36,706 nt of DNA from a virus. Its lineage: Duplodnaviria > Heunggongvirae > Uroviricota > Caudoviricetes. The translations under genes were made by a program, and so were the position numbers. Where the stretch lies: IMG/VR virus record IMGVR_UViG_2529293140_000002; one strand, 5' to 3'. The number at the start of each line of letters is the position of its first letter. The stretch's first letter is position 1. The notes under the pieces are model-generated. The model ran no database searches and was not told the DNA's origin. It saw nothing but the letters and a program-made list of their open reading frames with translations. Positions 3,722 through 26,563 of the stretch are shown one piece after another.

Positions 3722-3948
3722 TGGCTGATGCAATGGATCTCGTACAGCAGCGCGTTGAAGAAGAACGCCAACGCCATATCCGTGCTGCCCGTGCCAAAAC
3801 GCCGGGCGTGTCCCGCGTGCTTTGCATTGAGTGTGAAGCGCCAATTCCGCCAGCACGCCGCCGTGCCATTCCGGGTGTGCAGCTTTGCATTACCTGTCAG
3901 GAAATCGCAGAGCTGAAAGGCAAACATTACAACGGAGGTGCTGTATGA
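3721..3948 (+). CDS. TraR/DksA-family C4 zinc-finger protein
   Basis: 75-aa ORF with CxxC...CxxC spacing (CIECEAPIPPARRRAIPGVQLCITCQ) typical of phage and plasmid TraR/DksA-like zinc fingers. Confidence 0.7.
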   Translation: MADAMDLVQQRVEEERQRHIRAARAKTPGVSRVLCIECEAPIPPARRRAIPGVQLCITCQEIAELKGKHYNGGAV

Positions 3949-4802
3949 GCACCATCCTGAAATGGGCGGGAAATAAAACTGCCATAATGTCCGAACTGAA
4001 AAAACATCTTCCTGCTGGCCCGCGACTGGTTGAACCTTTCGCGGGTTCCTGTGCTGTGATGATGGAGACGGATTATCCCAGCTATCTGGTTGCGGATATT
4101 AATCCTGATTTAATCAACCTCTATAAAAAGGTTGCCGCTGATTGTGAATCGTTTATATCTCGCGCCAGAGTTTTATTTGAGATCGCAAACAGGGAGGTGG
4201 CTTATTACAACATAAGGCAGGAGTTTAATTACTCAACTGAAATTACTGATTTCATGAAAGCGGTATATTTCCTGTATCTCAATCGTCACGGTTACCGTGG
4301 TTTATGTCGCTATAACAAGAGCGGGCATTTCAACATTCCCTACGGTAATTATAAAAATCCGTATTTCCCTGAAAAAGAAATTCGCGCATTTGCAGAAAAG
4401 GCCCAGCGAGCAACGTTTATCTGCGCCAGCTTTGATGAAACGCTGGCGATGTTGAAGGCGGGGGATGTGGTGTATTGCGATCCGCCGTATGACGGTACGT
4501 TTTCCGGCTATCACACTGACGGCTTCACTGAAGATGACCAGTATCACCTGGCATCTGTTCTTGAACATCGGTCATCAGAAGGACATCCGGTCATTGTTTC
4601 TAACAGTGACACATCCCTGATCCGTTCGCTGTATCGCAATTTTACTCACCACTACATCAAGGCAAAACGCAGCATCGGTGTGGCAGCTGGCGAGGGTAAA
4701 TCAGCAACAGAAATCATTGCTGTTTCCGGGCCGCGCTGCTGGGTGGGATTTGATTATTCGCGTGGCGTGGATAGTTCTGCCGTGTACGGAGTACGTGCAT
4801 GA
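3945..4802 (+). CDS. dam: DNA adenine methyltransferase (Dam family, N6-adenine MTase)
   Basis: ATG at 3945 with GGAGGT upstream; N-terminal SAM-binding region (LKWAGNK...[10 protein letters not shown]) and the DPPY catalytic motif (VYCDPPYDG); stop overlaps the gene A start (ATGA). Confidence 0.85.
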
Positions 4803-7213
4803 GTCATGCCGATATGAACAACTGCTGCGGCTTTAACGAAGCTGCCGCATCGTTCTCATGGAACAGCTCGAAAAAGGCCATTAACCCTTATCTGGACCCG
4901 GTGGAAGTTGCGCCGGTTTCTACGCTTTCAAACCTGATCACTCTGTACGCTGCCGATAACGAGCAGGAACAGCTGCGCCGTGAGGCGCTGAGTGATCAGG
5001 TCTGGGAGCGTTATTTCTTTAATGAATCCCGTGATCCTGTCCAGCGCGAAATGGAACAGGATAAGCTCATTAGTCGGGCAAAGCTGGCGCATGAGCAGCA
5101 GCGTTTTAATCCGGATATGGTCATTCTGGCGGACGTCAACGCCCAGCCTTCCCATATCAGCAAGCCGCTGATGCAACGTATTGAATACTTCAGCAGCCTG
5201 GGCAGGCCAAAGGCTTATTCCCGCTATTTACGTGAGACGATTAAGCCATGTCTGGAACGACTGGAGCATGTACGCGACAGTCAGCTATCTGCATCTTTTC
5301 GCTTTATGGCAAGCCATGAAGGGCTGGACGGCCTGCTGATCCTGCCTGAAATGAGTCAGGATCAGGTGAAACGCCTGTCCACCCTGGTAGCTGCGCATAT
5401 GAGTATGTGCCTTGATGCCGCTTGTGGCGATTTGTATGCCACCGATGACGTTAAGCCAGAAGAAATCCGCAATACATGGGAAAGGGTGGCAGCGGAAACC
5501 CTGCGTCTGGATGTCATCCCGCCTGCGTTTGAGCAACTCCGTCGGAAAAGAAACCGCCGTAAACCCGTGCCCTATGAACTCATTCCGGGTTCGCTGGCGC
5601 GTATGTTGTGCGCCGACTGGTGGTATCGGAAATTATGGAAGATGCGTTGCGAATGGCGGGAAGAGCAGTTGCGTGCTGTCTGCCTTGTCAGCAAAAAAGC
5701 ATCTCCCTATGTCAGCTATGAAGCCGTGTTGCATAAACGTGAGCAGCGCCGTAAGTCGCTGGAGTTTTTCCGTTCTCATGAACTGGTGAACGAAGACGGC
5801 GACACGCTAGACATGGAGGATGTGGTAAACGCCAGCAGCAGCAACCCTGCGCATCGCCGCAATGAGATGATGGCCTGTGTTAAAGGTCTGGAGCTTATCG
5901 CGGAAATGCGCGGTGACTGCGCCGTTTTCTACACCATCACCTGTCCGTCACGTTTCCATTCCACGCTAAATAACGGCAGGCCCAACCCGACCTGGACAAA
6001 TGCGACGGTAAGACAAAGCAGCGATTATCTGGTCGGTATGTTTGCTGCATTTCGTAAGGCGATGCACAAAGCCGGGTTGCGCTGGTATGGCGTGCGGGTG
6101 GCTGAGCCGCATCACGACGGCACAGTTCACTGGCACCTGTTGTGTTTCATGCGCAAAAAAGACCGCCGCGCCATTACAGCATTGTTGCGTAAGTTTGCTA
6201 TCCGTGAAGACCGCGAGGAGCTGGGCAATAACACGGGGCCGCGCTTTAAGTCTGAGCTGATTAACCCGCGCAAAGGAACGCCGACAAGCTACATAGCGAA
6301 ATACATCAGTAAGAACATTGACGGGCGTGGTCTGACTGGCGAGATCAGCAAGGAAACGGGTAAATCTCTGCGTGATAACGCTGAATACGTGAATGCCTGG
6401 GCGTCTTTGCATCGTGTTCAGCAATTCCGCTTCTTTGGCATTCCGGGGCGTCAGGCTTACCGTGAACTGCGATTGCTGGCTGGTCAGGCGGCAAGGCAAA
6501 AGGGGGACAAAAAAGCAGGTGCGCCGGTACTGGATAACCCGCGCCTTGATGCCATCCTGGCTGCTGCTGATGCTGGTTGTTTTGCCACCTACATCATGAA
6601 GCAGGGCGGCGTACTGGTTCCCCGTAAATATCACCTCATCAGAACCGCTTATGAAATCAACGAAGAGCCGACCGCCTATGGCGATCACGGCATTCGTATT
6701 TATGGCATCTGGTCACCCATTGCAGAGGGCAAGATCTGCACTCATGCAGTGAAGTGGAAAATGGTTCGTAAAGCCGTTGACGTTCAGGAGGCGGCAGCCG
6801 ACCAGGGCGCTTGCGCCCCTTGGACTCGTGGCAATAACTGTCCCCTTGCTGAAAATTTGAACCAACAGGAGAAAGATAAATCAGCTGATGGGGACACCAG
6901 AACGGACATTACCCGCATGGATGACAAGGAGTTGCACGATTACCTGCACAGTATGAGCAAAAAAGAGCGCCGGGAACTGGCTGCAAGGTTACGCCTGGTG
7001 AAACCGAAACGGCGTAAAGACTACAAACAGCGAATTACAGACCATCAGCGACTGCAGCTCGTCTATGAGCTGAAGTCCAGAGGATTTGATGGTAACGAGA
7101 AAGAGGTCGATTTACTCCTTCGCGGCGGCAGTATTCCGTCAGGAGCAGGCCTGCGTATCTTCTATCGGAACCAGCGTTTGCAGGAAGATGATAAGTGGCG
7201 GAACCTGTATTAA
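4799..7213 (+). CDS. A: Replication initiation protein A (P2 gpA-like rolling-circle endonuclease)
   Basis: 804-aa ORF; conserved blocks recognisable from P2 gpA ([45 protein letters not shown]...AYRELR). Confidence 0.9.
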
Positions 7214-7305
7214 TTACGCGGGTTAACAATTCGTGCTCTTAATAATACCAGGCATATCAGGCTGATGAACGTAAAAAAACGTTTTACATCAGTAATATTA
7301 TTATA

Positions 7306-7325
7306 TACTGTAAATATAAACAGTA
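7306..7325 (+). promoter_or_regulatory. LexA operator (SOS box) TACTGTAAATATAAACAGTA
   Basis: Perfect CTGT-N8-ACAG palindrome with AT-rich spacer matching the E. coli LexA box consensus; about 40 bp upstream of the 7367 ATG, which has an AGGAGG Shine-Dalgarno. Confidence 0.7.
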
Positions 7326-7366
7326 GTTATCTATACAGTATTGTTTGCGGTGTCATAGGAGGAAAG

Positions 7367-7555
7367 ATGCAGGACTATTTTTTGGAGTCTTTGAAGCTCC
7401 AGCGCATTGATTTTTTTCTTAAGCTTGTAGCGGCTAGTGAGTGTAGTGATGAAGAGAAGGGGCTGGCTCTGCAGTGGGTTTCTGAACTGACAGATGAACT
7501 CATGGCAAAAATCAGAACCCACGAATACAACCGCTCAATGGATGTCATCAGCTGA
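7367..7555 (+). CDS. Small SOS-regulated protein, possible Tum-like antirepressor N-terminal module
   Basis: ORF 7265-7555; internal ATG at 7367 lies just downstream of the LexA box with a strong Shine-Dalgarno; 62 aa; followed 10 bp later by the DinI-like gene. Confidence 0.5.
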   Translation: MQDYFLESLKLQRIDFFLKLVAASECSDEEKGLALQWVSELTDELMAKIRTHEYNRSMDVIS

Positions 7556-7565
7556 GGTGACTTTT

Positions 7566-7799
7566 ATGCGCATTGAAATAATGATCGATAAAGAGCAGAA
7601 GATTAGCCAGTCTACACTGGACGCCCTTGAATCCGAGCTTTACCGCAATCTGCGCCCTCTGTATCCCAAAACGGTAATCCGTATCCGTAAAGGTAGCTCT
7701 AACGGTGTGGAACTGACCGGACTGCAACCGGACGAAGAAAGAAAACAAGTGATGAAAATTATGCAGAAGGTGTGGGAAGACGACAGCTGGCTGCATTAA
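7566..7799 (+). CDS. DinI-family protein (Tum C-terminal-like)
   Basis: ATG at 7566 preceded by GAGGTGA; 77 aa beginning MRIEIMIDK with acidic C-terminus (WEDDSWL), matching the DinI fold pattern as I recall it (MRIEVTIAK...WESADDW). Confidence 0.7.
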   Translation: MRIEIMIDKEQKISQSTLDALESELYRNLRPLYPKTVIRIRKGSSNGVELTGLQPDEERKQVMKIMQKVWEDDSWLH

Positions 7800-8243
7800 G
7801 AAATGTTGCCCCCAGGAGGATTCATTCTAATGGGGGCTAGTTTGGGCAACGAGTGAAACGAGGCGTAAGGTGGGTAATCATTTTGATAAGTGATCGCCCA
7901 CTTTGTGCCAAAAGCGGACATCGCAGATATGACAATATGTTAGTCAACCGCGATTAGATCAGTCAGTTGGAGATGGGGGGAAGTTACAAAAACTTGTCGT
8001 CCGCCATCTCCGACTACGGGTATTCTTAACTGTACATGCTCTTTCAATCGATGATTTTTGAGTAAGTGACTAACCTATTGTTTTGATAGTAATTAAACGT
8101 ATAAACGTGCGGAGTTAATTTGAAAGTTATGTGTCTATGTTTGACAAGCAAAATTTTAAAGATTGGTTTTATCCACAGGTAATTTATGCTATTAATAGCC
8201 TCAAGCCCTGTAATTATTTTTATTTAAATGGATAAATTTGAAA

Positions 8244-10364
8244 ATGAGTACATATCATAATGATCAGCCAATACTAGGTGGTCAAAATGACCCCGATTTA
8301 TTAAACAGGCTCGATTTTGCAAATCACTTGGCAAATATTCTACTATTAAATCACAATGATGATTGCCTTACTGTATCTATAGAGGCAGAGTGGGGATATG
8401 GTAAAACGTCAGTGATAAATCTTATAAAAGGTGCTTTGAATGAAAAGGAGTTCTTACCAATAATAATAGAATATAATCCATGGCTGGCCGGTCAACCTGA
8501 ATCCTTGATTCAGGATTTTTTATTACAGTTCTCTTCACAACTAAATATTAAAGACAATTCAAAAGCTGCTTTGGAAGCTTCAAAAGAATTAATTGCATAC
8601 TCCAATCTCTTCAGTGTAGCAAAACTTATTCCAGGGACAGAACCTTGGGCATCTATCATAGAAAAAGTCCTCTCTAATTTTGGGAGTGCTACTAAAAAGA
8701 TTGCTGAATTAAAAAAACTGGATCTTTTAGGTAGAAAAAAACAAGTAGAGAAGGCAATAAAAAAAATAAAAAATCCTATTGTGGTAATAATTGATGATAT
8801 TGATCGATTGACTCCTGCAGAAACTTTTCAAGTTTTACGATTGGTTAAAGCAGTTGCAGATTTCTCAGGAACTTCTTTTTTACTTGCATTTGATCCTAAT
8901 TATTTGATTTCTGTGCTTGATAAAAATAATATCGTCAATTCTTCGGAGTATCTTAATAAAATTGTTCAACTTCGAGTCCCACTTCCTGTAATCTCAGAAA
9001 GGGGTATGAATGAACTTGCAAATGCAGAACTGGAAAAGATAGCTAATAAATCTTTAACTGACAGATTCGAAAGTGATCAAGAAAGACTAAGCTGGATTTA
9101 TCATAATTATTTTAAAAAACTAATTAAGAATCCGAGAGAGTTAAAAAGATTTTTTAACCATTTGAGATTCGTTTTAGAGCAAATTGAAGGGCAGGTATGT
9201 TTTTCTGATCTCTTTGCTTTATCTCTGGTCGCCACTAAATCGAGTTTGGTATACGAGCATATTAAAAGCACACCAGAGGCATATATAGGGAAGAGATTCA
9301 CTAATGATGGCCTTTTGATGGATAAACCTCAAGATATTGTGGATAGATTTAGTGATGAGCGAAATAAGAAACTGAGTAATTTTTCTGATCAAGAGCGTTC
9401 AGTGATGCAGGAACTCTTAGGAGATATTTTCCCACTTCTACAGTCAAGCGGGTATTCTCATTATGGGGTTTCTGATCCCGATACAGCAGGAAGGGTTTCT
9501 GCACCACAAAGGCTTCATATTGCGTTTCATTATAAAACTCCAGCAGGGTATATTTCTGATCATGATATTATCAGTTTCATTAATGGAGATGTCAAAAGAA
9601 ACGAATTTCTAAGAGATGTGCTCTCGCAAAATGCAGAAGAAAGATTTTTTGAAATGATGAATAATTATTCGAGTTATTGTAAGGATAATAGTTTTGAAAT
9701 ATTAACGTGTATTTATGATACTTTTCTGTTTTCTCAAGAATTGAAATCCTCATTGGAAAGAAACTATGGTTTTTTGACAAAAGATCTTTATAGAAGGATG
9801 AATTGGCTCACTAATAAGGTAATATCTGAAAGTGATGATAAATATGGGTTAATAAAGGGGGTTGTAGGTAGGCATGAGAATGCGCCACTTGGTGCAGACG
9901 TATTATGCCAAGCTCGTAAACAGATTCAAAATGGATGGAATGACAAAATATGGGTTAGTATTGAAGAATTGGCTGAACTTGAAGGTATCTTTCAACAGGT
10001 GGCTATTAAAGTTTTAAGTGATAAAATATATTTTGATTATCATCTTGAATCTCATATATTTTTCGAATTAAAGAGAGTTTCATCTCAATTTACATCAGAG
10101 TTTATTGCTTCTGTATTATCAAGTGATGGCCTGATTAGGATGTGTGAGATTATTGGTGAAACAGGTAGTGATTCAACAAATGGCCCTTATTTTAAGTTTG
10201 ATGAAATTTACTTCGGGGAAATACTTGATGTGAATGAACTTCGAAATAAAGCGAAAAATTTAGATTTTTCAATTTATCCCACACGCATTCAAGCTGTACT
10301 TAAGAGTATTCTGGATGGACAAAAATATTATTTGAGAGATGCAACTGTTGGTGAAGATTGGTAA
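8244..10364 (+). CDS. KAP-family P-loop NTPase
   Basis: About 706 aa from the ATG at 8244 (the track ORF starts at a TTG at 8238); Walker A WGYGKTS at 8391-8411 and Walker B hhhhDDIDR (IVVIIDDIDRL) at about 8781-8807, the characteristic KAP NTPase signatures; strongly AT-rich compared with the phage backbone. Confidence 0.8.
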   Translation: MSTYHNDQPILGGQNDPDLLNRLDFANHLANILLLNHNDDCLTVSIEAEWGYGKTSVINLIKGALNEKEFLPIIIEYNPWLAGQPESLIQDFLLQFSSQLNIKDNSKAALEASKELIAYSNLFSVAKLIPGTEPWASIIEKVLSNFGSATKKIAELKKLDLLGRKKQVEKAIKKIKNPIVVIIDDIDRLTPAETFQVLRLVKAVADFSGTSFLLAFDPNYLISVLDKNNIVNSSEYLNKIVQLRVPLPVISERGMNELANAELEKIANKSLTDRFESDQERLSWIYHNYFKKLIKNPRELKRFFNHLRFVLEQIEGQVCFSDLFALSLVATKSSLVYEHIKSTPEAYIGKRFTNDGLLMDKPQDIVDRFSDERNKKLSNFSDQERSVMQELLGDIFPLLQSSGYSHYGVSDPDTAGRVSAPQRLHIAFHYKTPAGYISDHDIISFINGDVKRNEFLRDVLSQNAEERFFEMMNNYSSYCKDNSFEILTCIYDTFLFSQELKSSLERNYGFLTKDLYRRMNWLTNKVISESDDKYGLIKGVVGRHENAPLGADVLCQARKQIQNGWNDKIWVSIEELAELEGIFQQVAIKVLSDKIYFDYHLESHIFFELKRVSSQFTSEFIASVLSSDGLIRMCEIIGETGSDSTNGPYFKFDEIYFGEILDVNELRNKAKNLDFSIYPTRIQAVLKSILDGQKYYLRDATVGEDW

Positions 10365-10956
10365 TACTTTTATAGGCATGCTTAGAGATGATGGAGTATC
10401 TTTTTCTCCCTTTTTGAGGAAGTGATTTCCAACTGGGCATGGATGCCACATCAAATGGACAGTTGTTGTCACCTGTCAGTTAGCTGCTATTTGTTTATAG
10501 CAGCTGAAAGCCCACTACATAGTTACACCAGAAGGAGTAACAATGTAGTGGATAGCTAAATTTGACCACCTTAACAGATATGTTAATTTCCCCCCTCGCT
10601 CACAGCGGACTTTCATCTTTGTAAACCCTTATAATTCGCTTTTCAGCGGTCATTCAGATACGGATTTACGCTTTCCTTGGCAGTGCATGACTATGACGCA
10701 TGAGATCGCATGATCGTTTGAGGATCGTTTTTGCTGAGGCCAGCCAGAACTGGCGTGCTTTTGCTTATGTCATGCAGGTGCATGAAAACCACTACATAAA
10801 GTGGGCAGGCGTGGCGGGGATACGAGCGCGCGCTAACTCTTGGCTTTGTTTCATAATCAAAAATGTGATCATTGAGATTATTCTTAATTTTATGTTTGTC
10901 TATGAAATATCATTTCGCTTAACATTGTTTGAGTTAGGACTACATGAGAATAAAGA

Positions 10957-11532
10957 ATGCTTTTACCCGTAAGTGTTACATCGTGTGGCTTGTATCACCC
11001 CTACTGGCATTTGGGAGAGCGCAACCCTCATAGCGATGAACTATCAAGGCAGATGATGGATTTTAAGGATGAAAATAATCGTAATCATCAAAGGGCTATT
11101 AACCGTTTTTCTCGATTAGCTATAGATAAGGTTGGGCGGTTAGTAATCAGAGGTGGCGGTGGGCGTTTTGTTGAGTCTCCTTTTTCGATAGCAGTCGTCC
11201 CATCTCACACTGAAGGCAGAATTTCACCGGCTTTGATTGAGGTCGCCGAGCGAATCGTAAATGTTCACCGTCGGGGCATTGTTGATTGCTGTTTGGAAAG
11301 AACACGCACTGTTCCTAGCGCACATCGTGAAGGAGGAGATCGCTCAATTACTGGTCACATGTCTAGTATCAGAGTTAGGGGTGGTAACCTCATGGGGCGA
11401 AATGTGTTACTACTAGATGATGTTAAAACAACAGGCGGTAGTTTGTCTGCGTGTTTTTATTTACTGGAGTCTGCAGGAGCTGGAGTTATAATGCCATTAG
11501 CTCTGCTAGAAACTGCAAACTATGAGGAGTAG
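10957..11532 (+). CDS. Phosphoribosyltransferase-domain protein (ComF-like PRTase); candidate toxin or effector
   Basis: 191-aa ORF; type I PRTase PRPP-binding signature VLLLDDVKTTGGSL at 11404-11442 plus upstream ComF-like blocks (SIAVVPSH, LERTRTVPSAHRE); N-terminus uncertain because a possibly frameshifted ORF 10700-10972 lies upstream. Confidence 0.7.
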   Translation: MLLPVSVTSCGLYHPYWHLGERNPHSDELSRQMMDFKDENNRNHQRAINRFSRLAIDKVGRLVIRGGGGRFVESPFSIAVVPSHTEGRISPALIEVAERIVNVHRRGIVDCCLERTRTVPSAHREGGDRSITGHMSSIRVRGGNLMGRNVLLLDDVKTTGGSLSACFYLLESAGAGVIMPLALLETANYEE

Positions 11533-12496
11533 CAAAGTGCACTCAGAAGAATTAAAAAATACACTTGGATTAGCTATTCAAATCGGGAAGCTAGCATCTG
11601 ATCAAAGTGTATTGAAATTCTTTGAGCTTATTGATTTTGATGTTATTCGTGATATACGCGACTTAACTGAGATGGTTAATAGCCACGGGTTTCTAAAAGA
11701 TAAAATATCTGAGACTGATTTTCTAATAGCGAATGCTGAATTGGAGAACCACCATGTTAATGGTGTGGAGCTAATACCATATGGGTCTGAATTCTATCCT
11801 CTTAGTTTAGCGTTTACTCCTAATCCACCATCAATTCTCTACATAAAAGGGGATAAAAGTATACTAAAAGAATTGCCGGGTGTCGCAATTGTAGGATCCC
11901 GTGATACTTCCCCTGCAGGGGAAGAAATAACGAGGCGAATCACTAATCAGATAGTGTCTGCTGGGTATATTGTTGTAAGTGGGTTAGCAATAGGCACTGA
12001 TGCGAATGCTCATAAGGCAACGTTACAAGCAAAAGGAAAAACCATTGCTGTCTTGGCGCATGGTCTTGAGGAGGCTAAGCCGAAGCAAAACAGTCGACTT
12101 GCTCAAGAGATTCTGGATAAAGGTGGTGCATGGATTTCTGAGTATCCTATGGGGCGACCGGCCCAGAAACAATCATTTGTACAAAGAAATCGGATACAAG
12201 TTGGATTATCTGCAGGTTCAATTTTAATCGAGGCTGCGTTAAATAGCGGAACGATAACTCAAGCTGAGTTTGCAAATAAGGCTAAAAGACCAGTGTTTGC
12301 GGTTGTACCTCACCTACCTAATAATCCGCTTAATCTTAATTGTGAGGGAACAGTTGATTTAGTTAAGAGCAACATGGCTAGAGCGTTAAAAACAAAACGG
12401 GATTATGATGATGTGATTATGATCATAAATGAGTCTCGGGAGTATTTGTTAGAGCTAAAATGGCCAGGGAAACAGAGTACATTAGACTTGATTTAA
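11522..12496 (+). CDS. DprA/Smf-like Rossmann-fold protein; candidate antitoxin or partner of the PRTase
   Basis: 324-aa ORF overlapping the PRTase stop (alternative GTG at 11537 after GAGGAG); DprA signature VAIVGSR...VVSGLAIGTDANAHKA...IAVLAHGL...SEYP...RNRI...LIEAALNSG...RPVFAV. Confidence 0.75.
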   Translation: MRSSKVHSEELKNTLGLAIQIGKLASDQSVLKFFELIDFDVIRDIRDLTEMVNSHGFLKDKISETDFLIANAELENHHVNGVELIPYGSEFYPLSLAFTPNPPSILYIKGDKSILKELPGVAIVGSRDTSPAGEEITRRITNQIVSAGYIVVSGLAIGTDANAHKATLQAKGKTIAVLAHGLEEAKPKQNSRLAQEILDKGGAWISEYPMGRPAQKQSFVQRNRIQVGLSAGSILIEAALNSGTITQAEFANKAKRPVFAVVPHLPNNPLNLNCEGTVDLVKSNMARALKTKRDYDDVIMIINESREYLLELKWPGKQSTLDLI

Positions 12497-12520
12497 AGCG
12501 CCTCTTTTAGAGGCACTTTG

Positions 12521-13546
12521 CTAAATTTGATATCTCTCGAATTTTATAATTTCTTCACCGCTCCAATGATTAAATTCTTTCATTCTTTTTTGTAATGGTA
12601 ATAATTCATTTTTCACAAATACCTTACTAGCTTTTTCTACATCCCCAAATCCCCCAACATTATTAGGCATTATCCCCATCATCTGTGGCGGAACGCGATG
12701 TGCTGCCATCATGTCATCCCGGCTCACGTTCTTGATATTTAGAAACTCATCCTTCGCCGCAACTTCTGACAAAGGGATGATCTGAAGGCCGTCCTTTTTG
12801 CCGTTAGGCGAGTACATAAACAGGTTGCGGAAGTTACCCGGACCTTTGGCACTTTTCATTGCATTGCGGAGGTTGTTCACGTCCTCCTGGTTCTGCGCAG
12901 CATCGGTCATGTACATGATGAAGCCTGCATGACTACCGTTAATGTAATACTTGCGGCGGAACAGCGTGGCGGACTCATTGAGCAGGGCGGACGGAATGGC
13001 AGAAAGATAGCTGGGCAGGCCGTAGATCTCCTGGTTAATGTCCGGTTCCATCAGATGAAAAATGCTGCCTTTCGTGAACTGATACGGCTGGGTTGTCATA
13101 CCGTATTGCACAAACCAGTAGGTATCCAGGTCTAACCCGCGTCGGGTGTATTTTGCCAGAGCAGGCTCAAGGGCGATAACTTCACCGAAGCGGTTCGTGC
13201 GTTTCTCCAGGTAGGCGTTACCAAATACCAGATAGTCCTGCACAAAACGTGAAAAAGCCTGCTGGCTGAGCAGCGGGTGAGGGATGTAGGTACTGGTCAG
13301 AATGTTGCATTTTACTGCAATTGGTGAGCTGTGATGCACGGCAGCGCGGAAGGTTCGTGCCAGTCCGTCAAAGCTGACGGGCGGCTCATACCAGCGGTCC
13401 ATCTGTACGCATTCCACATAGTCCAGCAGTTCACGGCGGTCCAGAACAGGAACGGGATCGCCAAAGCTGAATGCTTCGGCTGAAGTCTGGCTTTTATGCT
13501 TGAGCTGATTCGTCGCCGCAGCGCGGTTTTTCTTACTCTTTCCCAT
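12521..13546 (-). CDS. Q: Portal protein (P2 gpQ-like)
   Basis: ORF 12521-13549 minus; ATG at 13546-13544 overlapping the upstream terminase stop; size about 341 aa; conserved position and length for P2-family portal. Confidence 0.85.
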   Translation of the reverse strand: MGKSKKNRAAATNQLKHKSQTSAEAFSFGDPVPVLDRRELLDYVECVQMDRWYEPPVSFDGLARTFRAAVHHSSPIAVKCNILTSTYIPHPLLSQQAFSRFVQDYLVFGNAYLEKRTNRFGEVIALEPALAKYTRRGLDLDTYWFVQYGMTTQPYQFTKGSIFHLMEPDINQEIYGLPSYLSAIPSALLNESATLFRRKYYINGSHAGFIMYMTDAAQNQEDVNNLRNAMKSAKGPGNFRNLFMYSPNGKKDGLQIIPLSEVAAKDEFLNIKNVSRDDMMAAHRVPPQMMGIMPNNVGGFGDVEKASKVFVKNELLPLQKRMKEFNHWSGEEIIKFERYQI

Positions 13547-15312
13547 CAAAAAATCTCCACAATATTGCTGGTATTGGCGGATTCGCCCTGCAGCGGTTCG
13601 TTAAACAGTGCGTGCATCGTTGCCCAGGCCAGATCGGCGTGGCTGGCTTCTTCGCTGCGGCTGGCTTCATAGGTCGGGCGGTTGCCGCTGGCGGTGGTGG
13701 CGCGACGGATTGCCATGAATGACTGCGCAATGTCGGTGTGCCCGGCGTCAAACTCCAGACGGCGGTGGCTGATAATGTCGTAGGCCTTGAGTACCAGGGC
13801 GTTTTTAACATTGGGGTTGTAGACAAACTCCCGGACGGCAGGAAAGAACGCTTTCACGTTCTCATAAACCCCGTGACCAACGCCGGTTGAGTCGATACCG
13901 ATATAGGTCACGTTGTACTGTTCGGTGAGTTTTTTGATGGCGTCAGCCTGGGCGCGGAAGTCCATCCCGCGCCACTGGTGACGCTCAAGAATGCGGAACT
14001 TACCACCCGGCACGGCTGGCGGAGCCACCACCACGCATCCGGCACTGTCGCCGTTCTGCGTACCTTTTGCCGGGTCATAACCGATCCACACTTCGCGCCA
14101 GCCAAACGGGCGCAGGGCCAGTGCATGAAAGTCGGTCCAGACTTCCCAGCTGTCCACCATGCACGCCTGCAGTTCGCTGAGCGGGAACACGGACGCGAGA
14201 TCGTCCACGAACTCGCACATCAGCAGGTTCTGGTATTCGTCCGGGCTGTACTCCATGCGTAGCTGGTCGAGGTCGAACAGGTTACAGCCGCCGCGCACCG
14301 CATCTTCCACGGTGACTATCTGGCGGTATTGCCCGTCTGCGCACAGCAGGCCGGGGGCCAAATTGCTGTGGGACAGGTCGATGTCCACCTTGTCAGCTTT
14401 GTTGCGTCCACGGTTGAACAGCGCACCGGACCAGAACGGATAAGCACTGTGGGTCAGGCTGGATGGCGTGGAAAAATAGGTTTGTCGCCATTTTTTGTGA
14501 ATAGCCATCCCGGAAGCCACTTTGCGCAGCTCCTGGAATTTCGGTATCCAGAAATATTCATCCAGATACAGGTTGCCGTGATAACTCTGGGCCGTGCGGG
14601 CATTGGTGCCGAGGAAGTAAAGCGTGGCTCCGTTAGGAAGCACCATCGGATCGCCTTTTAGCTCCACCTCGACTTCTTTGGCGAAGTCGATGATGTATTG
14701 TTTAAAGACGTGGGCCTGAGCCTTACTGGCAGAAAGGAAAATCTGGTTACGTCCGGTAAGCAGGGCGTCAATCAGGGCTTCACGGGCAAAATAGAAGGTC
14801 GCGCCGATCTGGCGTGACTTCAGCAGGTTGCGGATGCGGTTGGTTTTTCCGGCTTCCCACCAGTGGCGCTGGTAGTTGAACATGGAGGAATGGAAGATTT
14901 CTTCCAGCTTCTCAATCTGCTCATCGGTGAAAACATTCTTTTCCGGCTGACGGCGTGGGCCTTTATTGCGGTTGGCGACGTTAGGGTTTAAGTCGGCTTC
15001 GTTGCCGCCATTGTTAAACTTGCCGATCCGCGCGTGGCGCTCAGACTGGCGCGCCAGCAGGTCAATCTCTTTGAAATCTTTCCCTTCTTTGTGCTCCTTC
15101 ATAATGAGCTGGCAGTAGCGTGCGGCGGTGGTGAGCTGCATCTGATCCAGCGGCCCATAGTCACCCCACTTGTCGCGTTTTTTCCAGCTGTGAACGGTTG
15201 CAACTTTCTCGCCCAGCATTTCAGCAATGCGGGCTACGCGGTATCCCTGAAAGTACAGCAGCATGGCCTGCCGACGGGGATCGAGATCTGCGGGTGTCAG
15301 TGTGGTGTTCAT
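13546..15312 (-). CDS. P: Terminase large subunit, ATPase (P2 gpP-like)
   Basis: 588-aa ORF, start ATG at 15312-15310 (MNTTLTPADL); divergent from the scaffold gene O as in P2. Confidence 0.9.
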   Translation of the reverse strand: MNTTLTPADLDPRRQAMLLYFQGYRVARIAEMLGEKVATVHSWKKRDKWGDYGPLDQMQLTTAARYCQLIMKEHKEGKDFKEIDLLARQSERHARIGKFNNGGNEADLNPNVANRNKGPRRQPEKNVFTDEQIEKLEEIFHSSMFNYQRHWWEAGKTNRIRNLLKSRQIGATFYFAREALIDALLTGRNQIFLSASKAQAHVFKQYIIDFAKEVEVELKGDPMVLPNGATLYFLGTNARTAQSYHGNLYLDEYFWIPKFQELRKVASGMAIHKKWRQTYFSTPSSLTHSAYPFWSGALFNRGRNKADKVDIDLSHSNLAPGLLCADGQYRQIVTVEDAVRGGCNLFDLDQLRMEYSPDEYQNLLMCEFVDDLASVFPLSELQACMVDSWEVWTDFHALALRPFGWREVWIGYDPAKGTQNGDSAGCVVVAPPAVPGGKFRILERHQWRGMDFRAQADAIKKLTEQYNVTYIGIDSTGVGHGVYENVKAFFPAVREFVYNPNVKNALVLKAYDIISHRRLEFDAGHTDIAQSFMAIRRATTASGNRPTYEASRSEEASHADLAWATMHALFNEPLQGESANTSNIVEIF

Positions 15313-25895: not shown

Positions 25896-25996
25896 TGGCT
25901 GGCGAACTTTCGATAGTGCGAGTATTGAACGTTTAAGAAAATGAAGAGATAACGGCTAACTGGCATCATTTCCGGTTTCTATTCAGGGGGATGATC

Positions 25997-26563
25997 ATGC
26001 TTATTGGATATGTACGCGTGTCAACAAATGACCAGAACACCGATTTGCAACGTAGTGCGCTGAACTGCGCGGGATGTGAGCGGATTTTTGAGGACAAAAT
26101 CAGTGGTACTAAGTCCGACAGACCGGGGCTTAAAAAACTGCTCAGGACACTATCGGCAGGTGACACACTGGTTGTCTGGAAGCTGGACAGGTTGGGGCGC
26201 AGTATGCGGCATCTTGTTACGCTGATAGAAGAGTTGCGCCAGCGCGGCGTGAATTTCCGAAGTCTGACTGACAGTATTGATACCAGTACCCCAATGGGCA
26301 GTTTCTTTTTTCATGTCATGGGTGCCCTGGCTGAAATGGAACGCGAACTGATAGTTGAACGTACCAGGGCAGGGCTGGCTGCAGCTCGTGCTAAAGGCAG
26401 AGTAGGTGGACGCCGTCCTAAGTTGACTACCGAACAGTGGGCACAGATTGGGCGTTTACTCGAGGCCGGAGAATCAAGACAGCGTATTGCACTGATTTTT
26501 GATGTAGGCGTTTCTACCATTTATAGAAAATTTCCGGCAAATAAGAGCAATGAATCTCCCTGA
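25997..26563 (+). CDS. Serine recombinase, DNA invertase of the Hin/Gin/Pin/Cin family
   Basis: ATG at 25997 after GGGGGA; N-terminus MLIGYVRVSTNDQNTDLQ with catalytic serine context, resolvase domain and C-terminal HTH (GVSTIYRKF); about 188 aa. Confidence 0.85.
   Translation: MLIGYVRVSTNDQNTDLQRSALNCAGCERIFEDKISGTKSDRPGLKKLLRTLSAGDTLVVWKLDRLGRSMRHLVTLIEELRQRGVNFRSLTDSIDTSTPMGSFFFHVMGALAEMERELIVERTRAGLAAARAKGRVGGRRPKLTTEQWAQIGRLLEAGESRQRIALIFDVGVSTIYRKFPANKSNESP

Follow-up and report, generated by a model that had tools for sequence, protein, structure and literature searches.

The prophage-borne gene described here encodes a KAP-family nucleoside triphosphatase (NTPase) that, as judged from profile comparisons, is homologous, distantly but along its full length, to PifA from the F plasmid, and the gene is stand-alone, horizontally mobile cargo. 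It lies in IMG/VR record IMGVR_UViG_2529293140_000002, a Caudoviricetes sequence of 36,706 nucleotides (hereafter the window) that contains a complete 186/P2-like prophage of an Escherichia coli chromosome, flanked by ybjL and ybjM. A preliminary description had put the gene forward as a candidate single-gene defence protein that was not assignable to a named system; this last point has to be revised, as PADLOC, BLASTP and profile-profile comparison tie the product (hereafter the KAP protein) to PifA. The kind is already known: PifA is the prototype of single-gene KAP-family defence, and the present branch has been catalogued in a phage hotspot and is unnamed in the literature searched. We propose, with slightly better than even confidence, that the gene is a self-contained mobile anti-phage gene from a branch of the PifA family, the product of which would act as a single-protein sensor and switch that aborts infection. 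The evidence gathered here for this proposal concerns the family, the intact catalytic motifs, the domain architecture, the mobility as a single gene and the independence from neighbouring genes.

Relationship to PifA

PifA is a founding member of the KAP family, the name of which derives from Kidins220/ARMS and PifA. Both the Walker A (GxGKT/S) and the Walker B (hhhhDDxDR) motif expected of a member are intact in the KAP protein, a chain of 706 amino acids, and this protein gave the strong match to the Pfam family KAP_NTPase (PF07693) that the preliminary description had anticipated (E 2.1e-46; 159 bits, the cutoff being 20), in which residues 25-309 cover positions 4-288 of the 293-position profile. 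The best PADLOC model was PifA (E 9.9e-65), and a Vibrio orthologue aligns over positions 4-715 of this model. Weaker PADLOC matches were obtained for PDC-S20 (E 2.6e-21) and QatA (E 6e-12). No housekeeping family was matched: the sole NCBIfam match was to QatA and fell below threshold (38 bits against a cutoff of 600), and the PHROGs match was to a family of unknown function.

Comparison with F PifA itself by BLASTP gave 26% identity over residues 43-360 (E 3e-21), the two proteins being 706 and 741 residues long. Alignment of whole profiles with hhalign (20 sequences per family) returned a probability of 99.7%, and the N-terminal halves alone matched with E 8e-31. For the C-terminal halves, a deep alignment of 24 sequences gave a probability of 96.4%, E 1.4e-9 and a score of 75.2 over 321 collinear columns, compared with scores of 15.4 for a reversed control and 20.1±3.0 (maximum, 26.6) for 30 block shuffles. 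The conserved motif GSDSTNGPY of the KAP protein aligns in this region with the invariant S-x-x-x-G-x-Y of PifA (S689, G693 and Y695). An exhaustive search of cluster representatives identified 925 relatives at E ≤1e-30, many of which, at about 700 residues, can be aligned over their entire length at identities as low as about 25%.

Domain architecture

An AlphaFold2 model was built from an alignment of 60 sequences (mean predicted local distance difference test score [pLDDT], 86.5; predicted TM-score [pTM], 0.79). It predicts an NTPase domain of RdrA/ORC-like fold followed by a fast-evolving α-solenoid, with no enzyme domain; the C-terminal part, for which the preliminary description had asked for a definition, is thereby modelled as an all-helical unit (Table 1). 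A sequence search of the PDB returned nothing meaningful, and the KAP protein has no sequence relative with a solved structure. The catalytic motifs are well preserved. In the 60-sequence deep alignment, G51, G53, K54 and S56 of Walker A are at least 90% conserved, D184, D187 and R188 of Walker B are invariant, and both motifs are kept, together with an NPW motif and R298, in sequences of as little as 22% identity. Walker A had been placed exactly, and the Walker B motif had been correctly recognized, with its approximate span of 8781-8807 now replaced by the true one.

The KAP protein has no transmembrane helix, the highest mean hydropathy in a 19-residue Kyte-Doolittle window being 1.48; inserted helices, which had been singled out for checking, are therefore not present. 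Their absence leaves KAP membership intact because PifA has also been reported to be without transmembrane helices (PMC13001434). The only segment with a pLDDT below 50 is the loop between Walker A and Walker B, residues 128-156 (LIPGTEPWASIIEKVLSNFGSATKKIAEL). This loop shows 85% identity among orthologues, matching the conservation of the NTPase core, and P130, G131 and E133 to S137 are invariant among them. Its hydrophobicity is too low for a transmembrane helix, and a scan of hydrophobic moments did not single it out as an amphipathic helix. In membrane-bound KAP NTPases, the interval between Walker A and Walker B is said to bear transmembrane helices, and this loop might be its positional equivalent. 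Transmembrane helices of KAP proteins have been placed outside the P-loop domain (PMC13001434, citing Aravind et al. 2004).

The two halves of the protein evolve at different rates. Identity among orthologues amounts to 85-87% in the N-terminal half and 65-68% in the C-terminal half, and in the deep family the corresponding values are about 40% and 16-25%; many relatives of about 700 residues can be aligned only up to about residue 470. A Pfam scan of ten distant relatives of about 700 to 870 residues revealed no effector domain, only P-loop NTPase families. Immune sensors typically have a C-terminal half that evolves fast, and by this analogy the solenoid may have a sensor role.

A stand-alone and mobile gene

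The open reading frame (ORF) starts with an ATG and encodes 706 residues; an alternative in-frame TTG at 8238 would give 708. An identical product (WP_000109153.1) is annotated by RefSeq in five E. coli chromosomes, which match the region at 99.7-100%. With a GC content of 0.334 (33.4%), the gene has the lowest value among the 21 genes measured, as had been noted for the window at first sight; the whole window has a GC content of 0.508 and the structural genes one of about 0.55. The flanking gaps, which had been estimated at about 450 and 590 bp and described as free of an obvious partner, measure 444 bp to the upstream DinI-like gene (which ends at 7799) and 592 bp to the downstream phosphoribosyltransferase (PRTase) ORF. 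Neither gap contains a RefSeq annotation, and a scan of 7000-13000 against Rfam identified no RNA family. An ORF of 90 residues that begins in the second gap and overlaps the conserved cos site is very probably not a real gene (Table 1).

The gene was detected in 18 of 5,426 complete E. coli genomes, with all copies at least 99% identical. Orthologues with 68-89% identity and a constant length of about 707 residues are found in Yersinia, Klebsiella, Enterobacter, Salmonella, Serratia, Vibrio, Shewanella, Aeromonas and Alteromonas. Their locations differ widely: in a Serratia prophage the orthologue is the only cargo of the slot between gene A and the portal gene; of the Shewanella copies, some have plasmid ParAB and RelE genes for neighbours and others have metabolic genes on either side; the Vibrio parahaemolyticus copy is in a small variable islet beside gcvP; and those of Enterobacter and Aeromonas are between chromosomal genes. 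Nucleotide similarity is confined to the ORF in all seven comparisons made; the closest nonphage copy, from Enterobacter, shares positions 8154-10606, so that the similarity reaches no further than 90 bp before and 242 bp after the ORF. No gene is common to the eight contexts inspected and no conserved partner was seen, in line with the single-gene character initially suggested.

A paralogue of 74% identity (700 residues; a cluster of 145 sequences) is located between tail gene D and ogr of other P2-like prophages, at 6001-8103 in contigs of E. coli and Salmonella (L012-L015). Given the copies between A and Q and those between D and ogr, P2-type phages have acquired members of one family in two distinct slots. 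A small hok/gef-like ORF follows ogr at the paralogue loci.

Two of the 18 E. coli copies, in strains SCU-176 (L026) and C21 (L027), carry independent single-A deletions in runs of five and eight A residues (window equivalents, 8694 and 8759). The truncated proteins end at residue 155 or 174, the premature stops being codons 156 and 175. These deletions may be assembly errors, as occur at homopolymers in long reads, or may reflect recent loss of a costly gene.

A hotspot divided by cos

The prophage encodes an integrase, CI and CII of the 186 type, a Dam methylase, a terminase, head and tail genes and gene D. The KAP gene lies between replication gene A and portal gene Q, an interval defined as the P2 hotspot by Rousset et al. 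2022, which bears out its initial assignment to a known cargo hotspot. Table S5 of that study lists the exact KAP accession in the hotspot as "KAP_NTPase", beside a DprA-like gene, as well as a second case, WP_048264226, beside an AAA_13 gene; KAP_NTPase was not among the systems tested there. In the otherwise collinear prophage of strain E2348/69, which has no KAP gene, homology stops at 7918 and resumes at 10597, which delimits the cargo cassette (Table 1).

When the 19-mer of P2 cos was sought in the window as a pattern, with as many as 2 mismatches allowed, nothing was found. The cohesive-end sequence was recognized by eye and by alignment with the P2 genome ends; it differs from P2 cos at 4 positions, of which the search pattern counts 3 as mismatches, having an N at the fourth. 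The 19-mer is embedded in a conserved backbone element of roughly 150 bp (about 10682-10835) that occurs, irrespective of the cargo, in about 1,250 of the 5,426 complete E. coli genomes. The cos site splits the A-Q hotspot into two independently filled cargo slots. Slot 1, which extends from the DinI-like gene as far as cos, corresponds to the position of tin and old in P2 and holds the KAP gene here. Slot 2, from cos to Q, holds the PRTase gene and a DprA-like gene. In P2 itself, Q begins 187 bp from the left genome end, and the cargo between cos and Q in the phage of the window is therefore an insertion.

The slot 2 genes constitute a ShosTA system, since PADLOC identified the PRTase as ShosT (E 3.6e-14) and the DprA-like protein as ShosA (E 2.8e-70); a DprA-PRTase pair from the P2 hotspot has been validated against T7 and λ (Rousset 2022). 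ShosTA occupies slot 2 in five KAP-carrying genomes and is present without the KAP gene in the E2348/69 prophage. As cos lies between the KAP gene and ShosTA, the two are at opposite genome ends in packaged virion DNA, and the location of cos within the 592-bp gap makes the independence of the KAP gene stronger than could be known when the sequence was first read. A ShosT/ShosA operon that includes the KAP gene was considered and rejected, given the intervening cos and the occurrence of each without the other. In strain D7 (L001, 7761-10097), slot 2 contains a 778-residue ATPase that matches the PADLOC candidate PDC-S06 (E 1.6e-266), and other KAP carriers diverge at the same point as D7, just after cos. 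In SCU-176 (L026, 5777-7115), it contains a gene for a RES-family NAD+ phosphorylase, which by our own reading is a defence candidate, with a small upstream ORF; an IS1 element separates this cargo from the KAP gene.

Several further observations concern the same prophages. The ShosT-like PRTase ORF (191 residues) overlaps the start of ShosA by 11 nucleotides; it is unannotated in RefSeq for BE311 and E2348/69 and absent from the locus list in Table S5 of Rousset, so that the toxin half of ShosTA seems to be routinely missed by annotation. Slot 1 of KAP-less prophages holds a small minus-strand DUF8087 gene (E2348/69, L003 2294-2629; also BL21(DE3)), which seems to be a common alternative cargo. 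Irrespective of the presence of the KAP gene, all P2-like prophage loci that were inspected have a DinI-like gene annotated beside gene A. Elsewhere in the window, a serine invertase of 190 residues (25991-26563; Resolvase and HTH_7, E 8e-53) directly follows the tail-fibre genes H and G, a position that suggests an invertible tail-fibre (host-range) segment; serine recombinases have lately been put forward as indicators of defence genes in the vicinity. The early operon also encodes, immediately upstream of gene A, an orphan Dam-type N6-adenine methyltransferase (3885-4802; MethyltransfD12, E 1e-76), which may be an anti-restriction function of the prophage.

Table 1. Coordinates of the KAP gene, its parts and surrounding features in the window
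Feature	Position	Strand	Basis or remark
PifA-like KAP-family NTPase gene	8244..10364, stop codon included	+	ORF list, Pfam, PADLOC, RefSeq WP_000109153.1
KAP P-loop NTPase domain, residues 25-309	8316..9170	+	predicted fold resembles RdrA and ORC/Cdc6
Walker A WGYGKTS, W50-S56	8391..8411	+	coordinates checked
Conserved loop separating the two Walker motifs, residues 128-156 (LIPGTEPWASI...)	8625..8711	+	low-confidence prediction
Walker B IVVIIDDIDRL, I179-L189	8778..8810	+	coordinates checked
C-terminal all-helical α-solenoid domain, residues 351-706	9294..10361	+	proposed sensor; homologous to PifA C-terminal half by profile comparison
Conserved β-hairpin motif GSDSTNGPY, residues 641-649	10164..10190	+	invariant columns, alignments
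Cargo cassette, missing from otherwise collinear KAP-less prophage	7919..10596	.	E2348/69 comparison; GC 0.341
Phage cos cohesive-end sequence GGCGTGGCGGGGATACGAG	10808..10826	+	aligns with P2 cosR/cosL and flanks
Probably spurious 90-residue ORF	10700-10972		spans conserved cos element into ShosT start; Amidohydro_2 E 0.0019 (weak)
ShosTA system, independent neighbour	10957..12496	+	PRTase 10957-11532, DprA-like 11522-12496
Replication gene A	4799-7213
Portal gene Q	12521-13549

Proposed mode of action and alternative explanations

A defence role, a sensor role of the C-terminal half, oligomerization and a membrane-directed or abortive end-point are the parts of the proposal that we infer. 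Immune NTPases that sense proteins usually combine an NTPase switch with a helical-repeat domain that diverges rapidly, as the KAP protein does, and a sensor model is accordingly proposed. The KAP protein, free of transmembrane helices, would be idle in the cytoplasm of the lysogen until its α-solenoid binds a protein of an infecting phage. Binding would free the NTPase switch, allowing nucleotide exchange or hydrolysis and self-assembly, as in the heptameric rings of RdrA, and the active assembly would halt infection at the cell's cost, by growth arrest or permeabilization. This end-point is the weakest step. PifA excludes T7 abortively, is triggered by gp1.2 and gp10, and causes membrane depolarization and nucleotide leakage (PMC13001434; BASEL). 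It is the only characterized homologue that shares both domains, and a PifA-like abortive end-point is therefore proposed: membrane permeabilization, nucleotide loss and abortive infection would be the likeliest route, with no separate enzymatic effector domain involved. We regard as quite unlikely the more specific idea of an "effector-less" immune NTPase, in which the solenoid would sense a phage protein, the protein would oligomerize and the loop at residues 128-156 would engage and breach the membrane; if true, it would explain how PifA causes membrane leakage with no transmembrane helix of its own. That single KAP proteins can protect has been reported for EF_KAP, in a manner dependent on Walker B (2025 preprint), and for Reve, from the P4 hotspot, for which protection was obtained experimentally (2026 preprint).

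A number of results weigh against an abortive PifA-like defence gene. The relation to PifA is remote, with a PADLOC score of 217 bits compared with 963 for F PifA and an envelope that covers only positions 4-456 of the 720 of the hidden Markov model, and the C-terminal halves did not match significantly in hhalign when a shallow orthologue alignment was used (probability, 4%). On the F-type plasmid pifC is directly upstream of pifA, and tblastn with PifC returned no significant match, either in the window (best E 5.2) or at seven orthologue loci. The KAP accessions were not found in the DefensePredictor supplements. Moreover, the PifA end-point is not transferable with confidence because EF_KAP was judged to be nonabortive, being equally protective at multiplicities of infection of 1 and 10 (2025 preprint), and because the membrane NTPase Tmn turns over ATP and exports Mg2+ and does not depolarize the membrane (PMC13001434). 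These two cases would also fit a defence gene of a different mode, in which a phage protein is sequestered or remodelled and the cell survives, or in which ATP or ions are drained as by Tmn, and so would the lack, in the KAP protein, of a recognizable effector or pore-forming domain and of a transmembrane helix. We nevertheless consider such a mode rather unlikely: PifA, the sole characterized homologue with both domains, is abortive with membrane leakage, whereas EF_KAP bears two N-terminal transmembrane helices, Tmn comes from another family, YobI, and Reve shows no significant BLASTP similarity to the KAP protein (best E 0.28).

The effect on phages might also be incidental to a role in signalling, in stabilization of the element or in exclusion of plasmids and conjugation. 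The BASEL authors question whether PifA evolved primarily for immunity, several orthologues lie between ordinary chromosomal genes, and a tblastn search of 50,697 deposited phage genomes found no homologue, which also counts against the main proposal. A nondefence role is nonetheless improbable in our estimation, given two independent occurrences in P2-type cargo slots and one occurrence as the only cargo between A and Q, hotspot neighbours that are defence genes or candidates (ShosTA, PDC-S06 and the RES-domain gene), a patchy distribution combined with foreign composition, a fast-evolving C-terminal half of the sort found in immune sensors, and the lack of any housekeeping match. That the gene is a decaying or inert passenger, intact in appearance yet unexpressed or without function, is very improbable. 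The two truncated copies would fit this explanation, as would a promoter and terminator scan at background (20 sites, with 16.8 expected) that revealed no convincing promoter and that counts against an active defence gene too; but the full-length frame and the catalytic residues have been kept across genera at 68-89% identity and constant length, and the deletions lie in homopolymers and arose independently. Least credible of all, and largely refuted, is a multigene system comprising the KAP gene and either the PRTase and DprA-like genes or the DinI-like gene. ShosTA is adjacent to it on the same strand in the prophage, and both RdrA, the closest structural relative, and QatA, a sequence relative, operate within operons. 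However, cos intervenes, prophages with a 99.5% identical KAP gene have PDC-S06 or the RES-domain gene in place of ShosTA, and E2348/69 has ShosTA alone. The DinI-like gene stands beside gene A regardless of the KAP gene, the E2348/69 homology running through it to 7918, the eight contexts have no gene in common, and an adenosine deaminase and QatBCD are both lacking.

Significance

PifA has been known for about 50 years and has been difficult to express ectopically (BASEL). The KAP branch described here, being soluble, compact and confidently modelled, could be a more tractable entry to the mechanism of PifA, and it has spread as a single gene through Enterobacterales, Vibrio, Shewanella and Aeromonas. 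The inventory of the P2 hotspot gains a catalogued candidate cargo gene, and the hotspot itself is to be seen as two slots split by cos. For phage therapy, the gene adds to the candidate resistance determinants that prophages bring to E. coli, Serratia, Enterobacter and Vibrio.

Comparison with known systems

The weak matches to QatA and PDC-S20 reflect a KAP-type NTPase domain; QatA requires QatBCD, which are absent beside the KAP gene, whereas the PDC-S20 models are about 450 residues long and cover the NTPase part alone. Membership in Qat was rejected on the NCBIfam score for QatA given above and on the absence of adjacent QatB, QatC or QatD homologues. The closest solved structure is that of RdrA from RADAR (PDB 8fnu, 8fnt and 8hr8), a likeness that is structural only, with a whole-chain TM-score of about 0.3. 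RdrA acts with the adenosine deaminase RdrB, whereas a partner of the RdrB type is absent beside the KAP gene; RADAR membership was rejected, the neighbours being the DinI-like gene, cos and ShosTA and a deaminase being present in 0 of 8 contexts.

Reve and EF_KAP, the second of which was described with related fusions of KAP to effectors (2025 preprint), are single protective proteins that resemble the KAP protein in having a KAP NTPase and a C-terminal region of no known domain. Reve, the ORF of which was translated from Dataset E1 of the preprint, originates in the sister hotspot of P4, which likewise adjoins cos, and shows the same Pfam pair, PF07693 and PF13401. It differs in having 586 residues and in matching PDC-S49 rather than PifA, and identity with Reve was rejected, the best BLASTP match being a 12-residue stretch that spans Walker A. 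EF_KAP differs in its origin from Enterococcus and in its two N-terminal transmembrane helices. STAND/Avs proteins belong outside the KAP family and have N-terminal nuclease, TIR or SIR2 effector domains of which the KAP protein has none; the analogy would lie in a P-loop switch with a fast-evolving helical-repeat sensor, recognition of a phage protein and oligomerization.

Old and Tin of P2 are unrelated proteins encoded on the opposite strand in P2, but they occupy the same slot, from gene A to cos, and have the same presumed exclusion role by lysogenic conversion. With respect to PifA, the KAP protein is a very distant branch with no pifC repressor gene upstream, and it is encoded on prophages or chromosomal islets, whereas PifA is encoded on a conjugative plasmid. 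Both are single large cytoplasmic KAP NTPases of similar length that have no transmembrane helices and are borne on mobile elements, and profile comparison supports homology over the NTPase domain and the C-terminal helical half, including the common S-x-x-x-G-x-Y motif.

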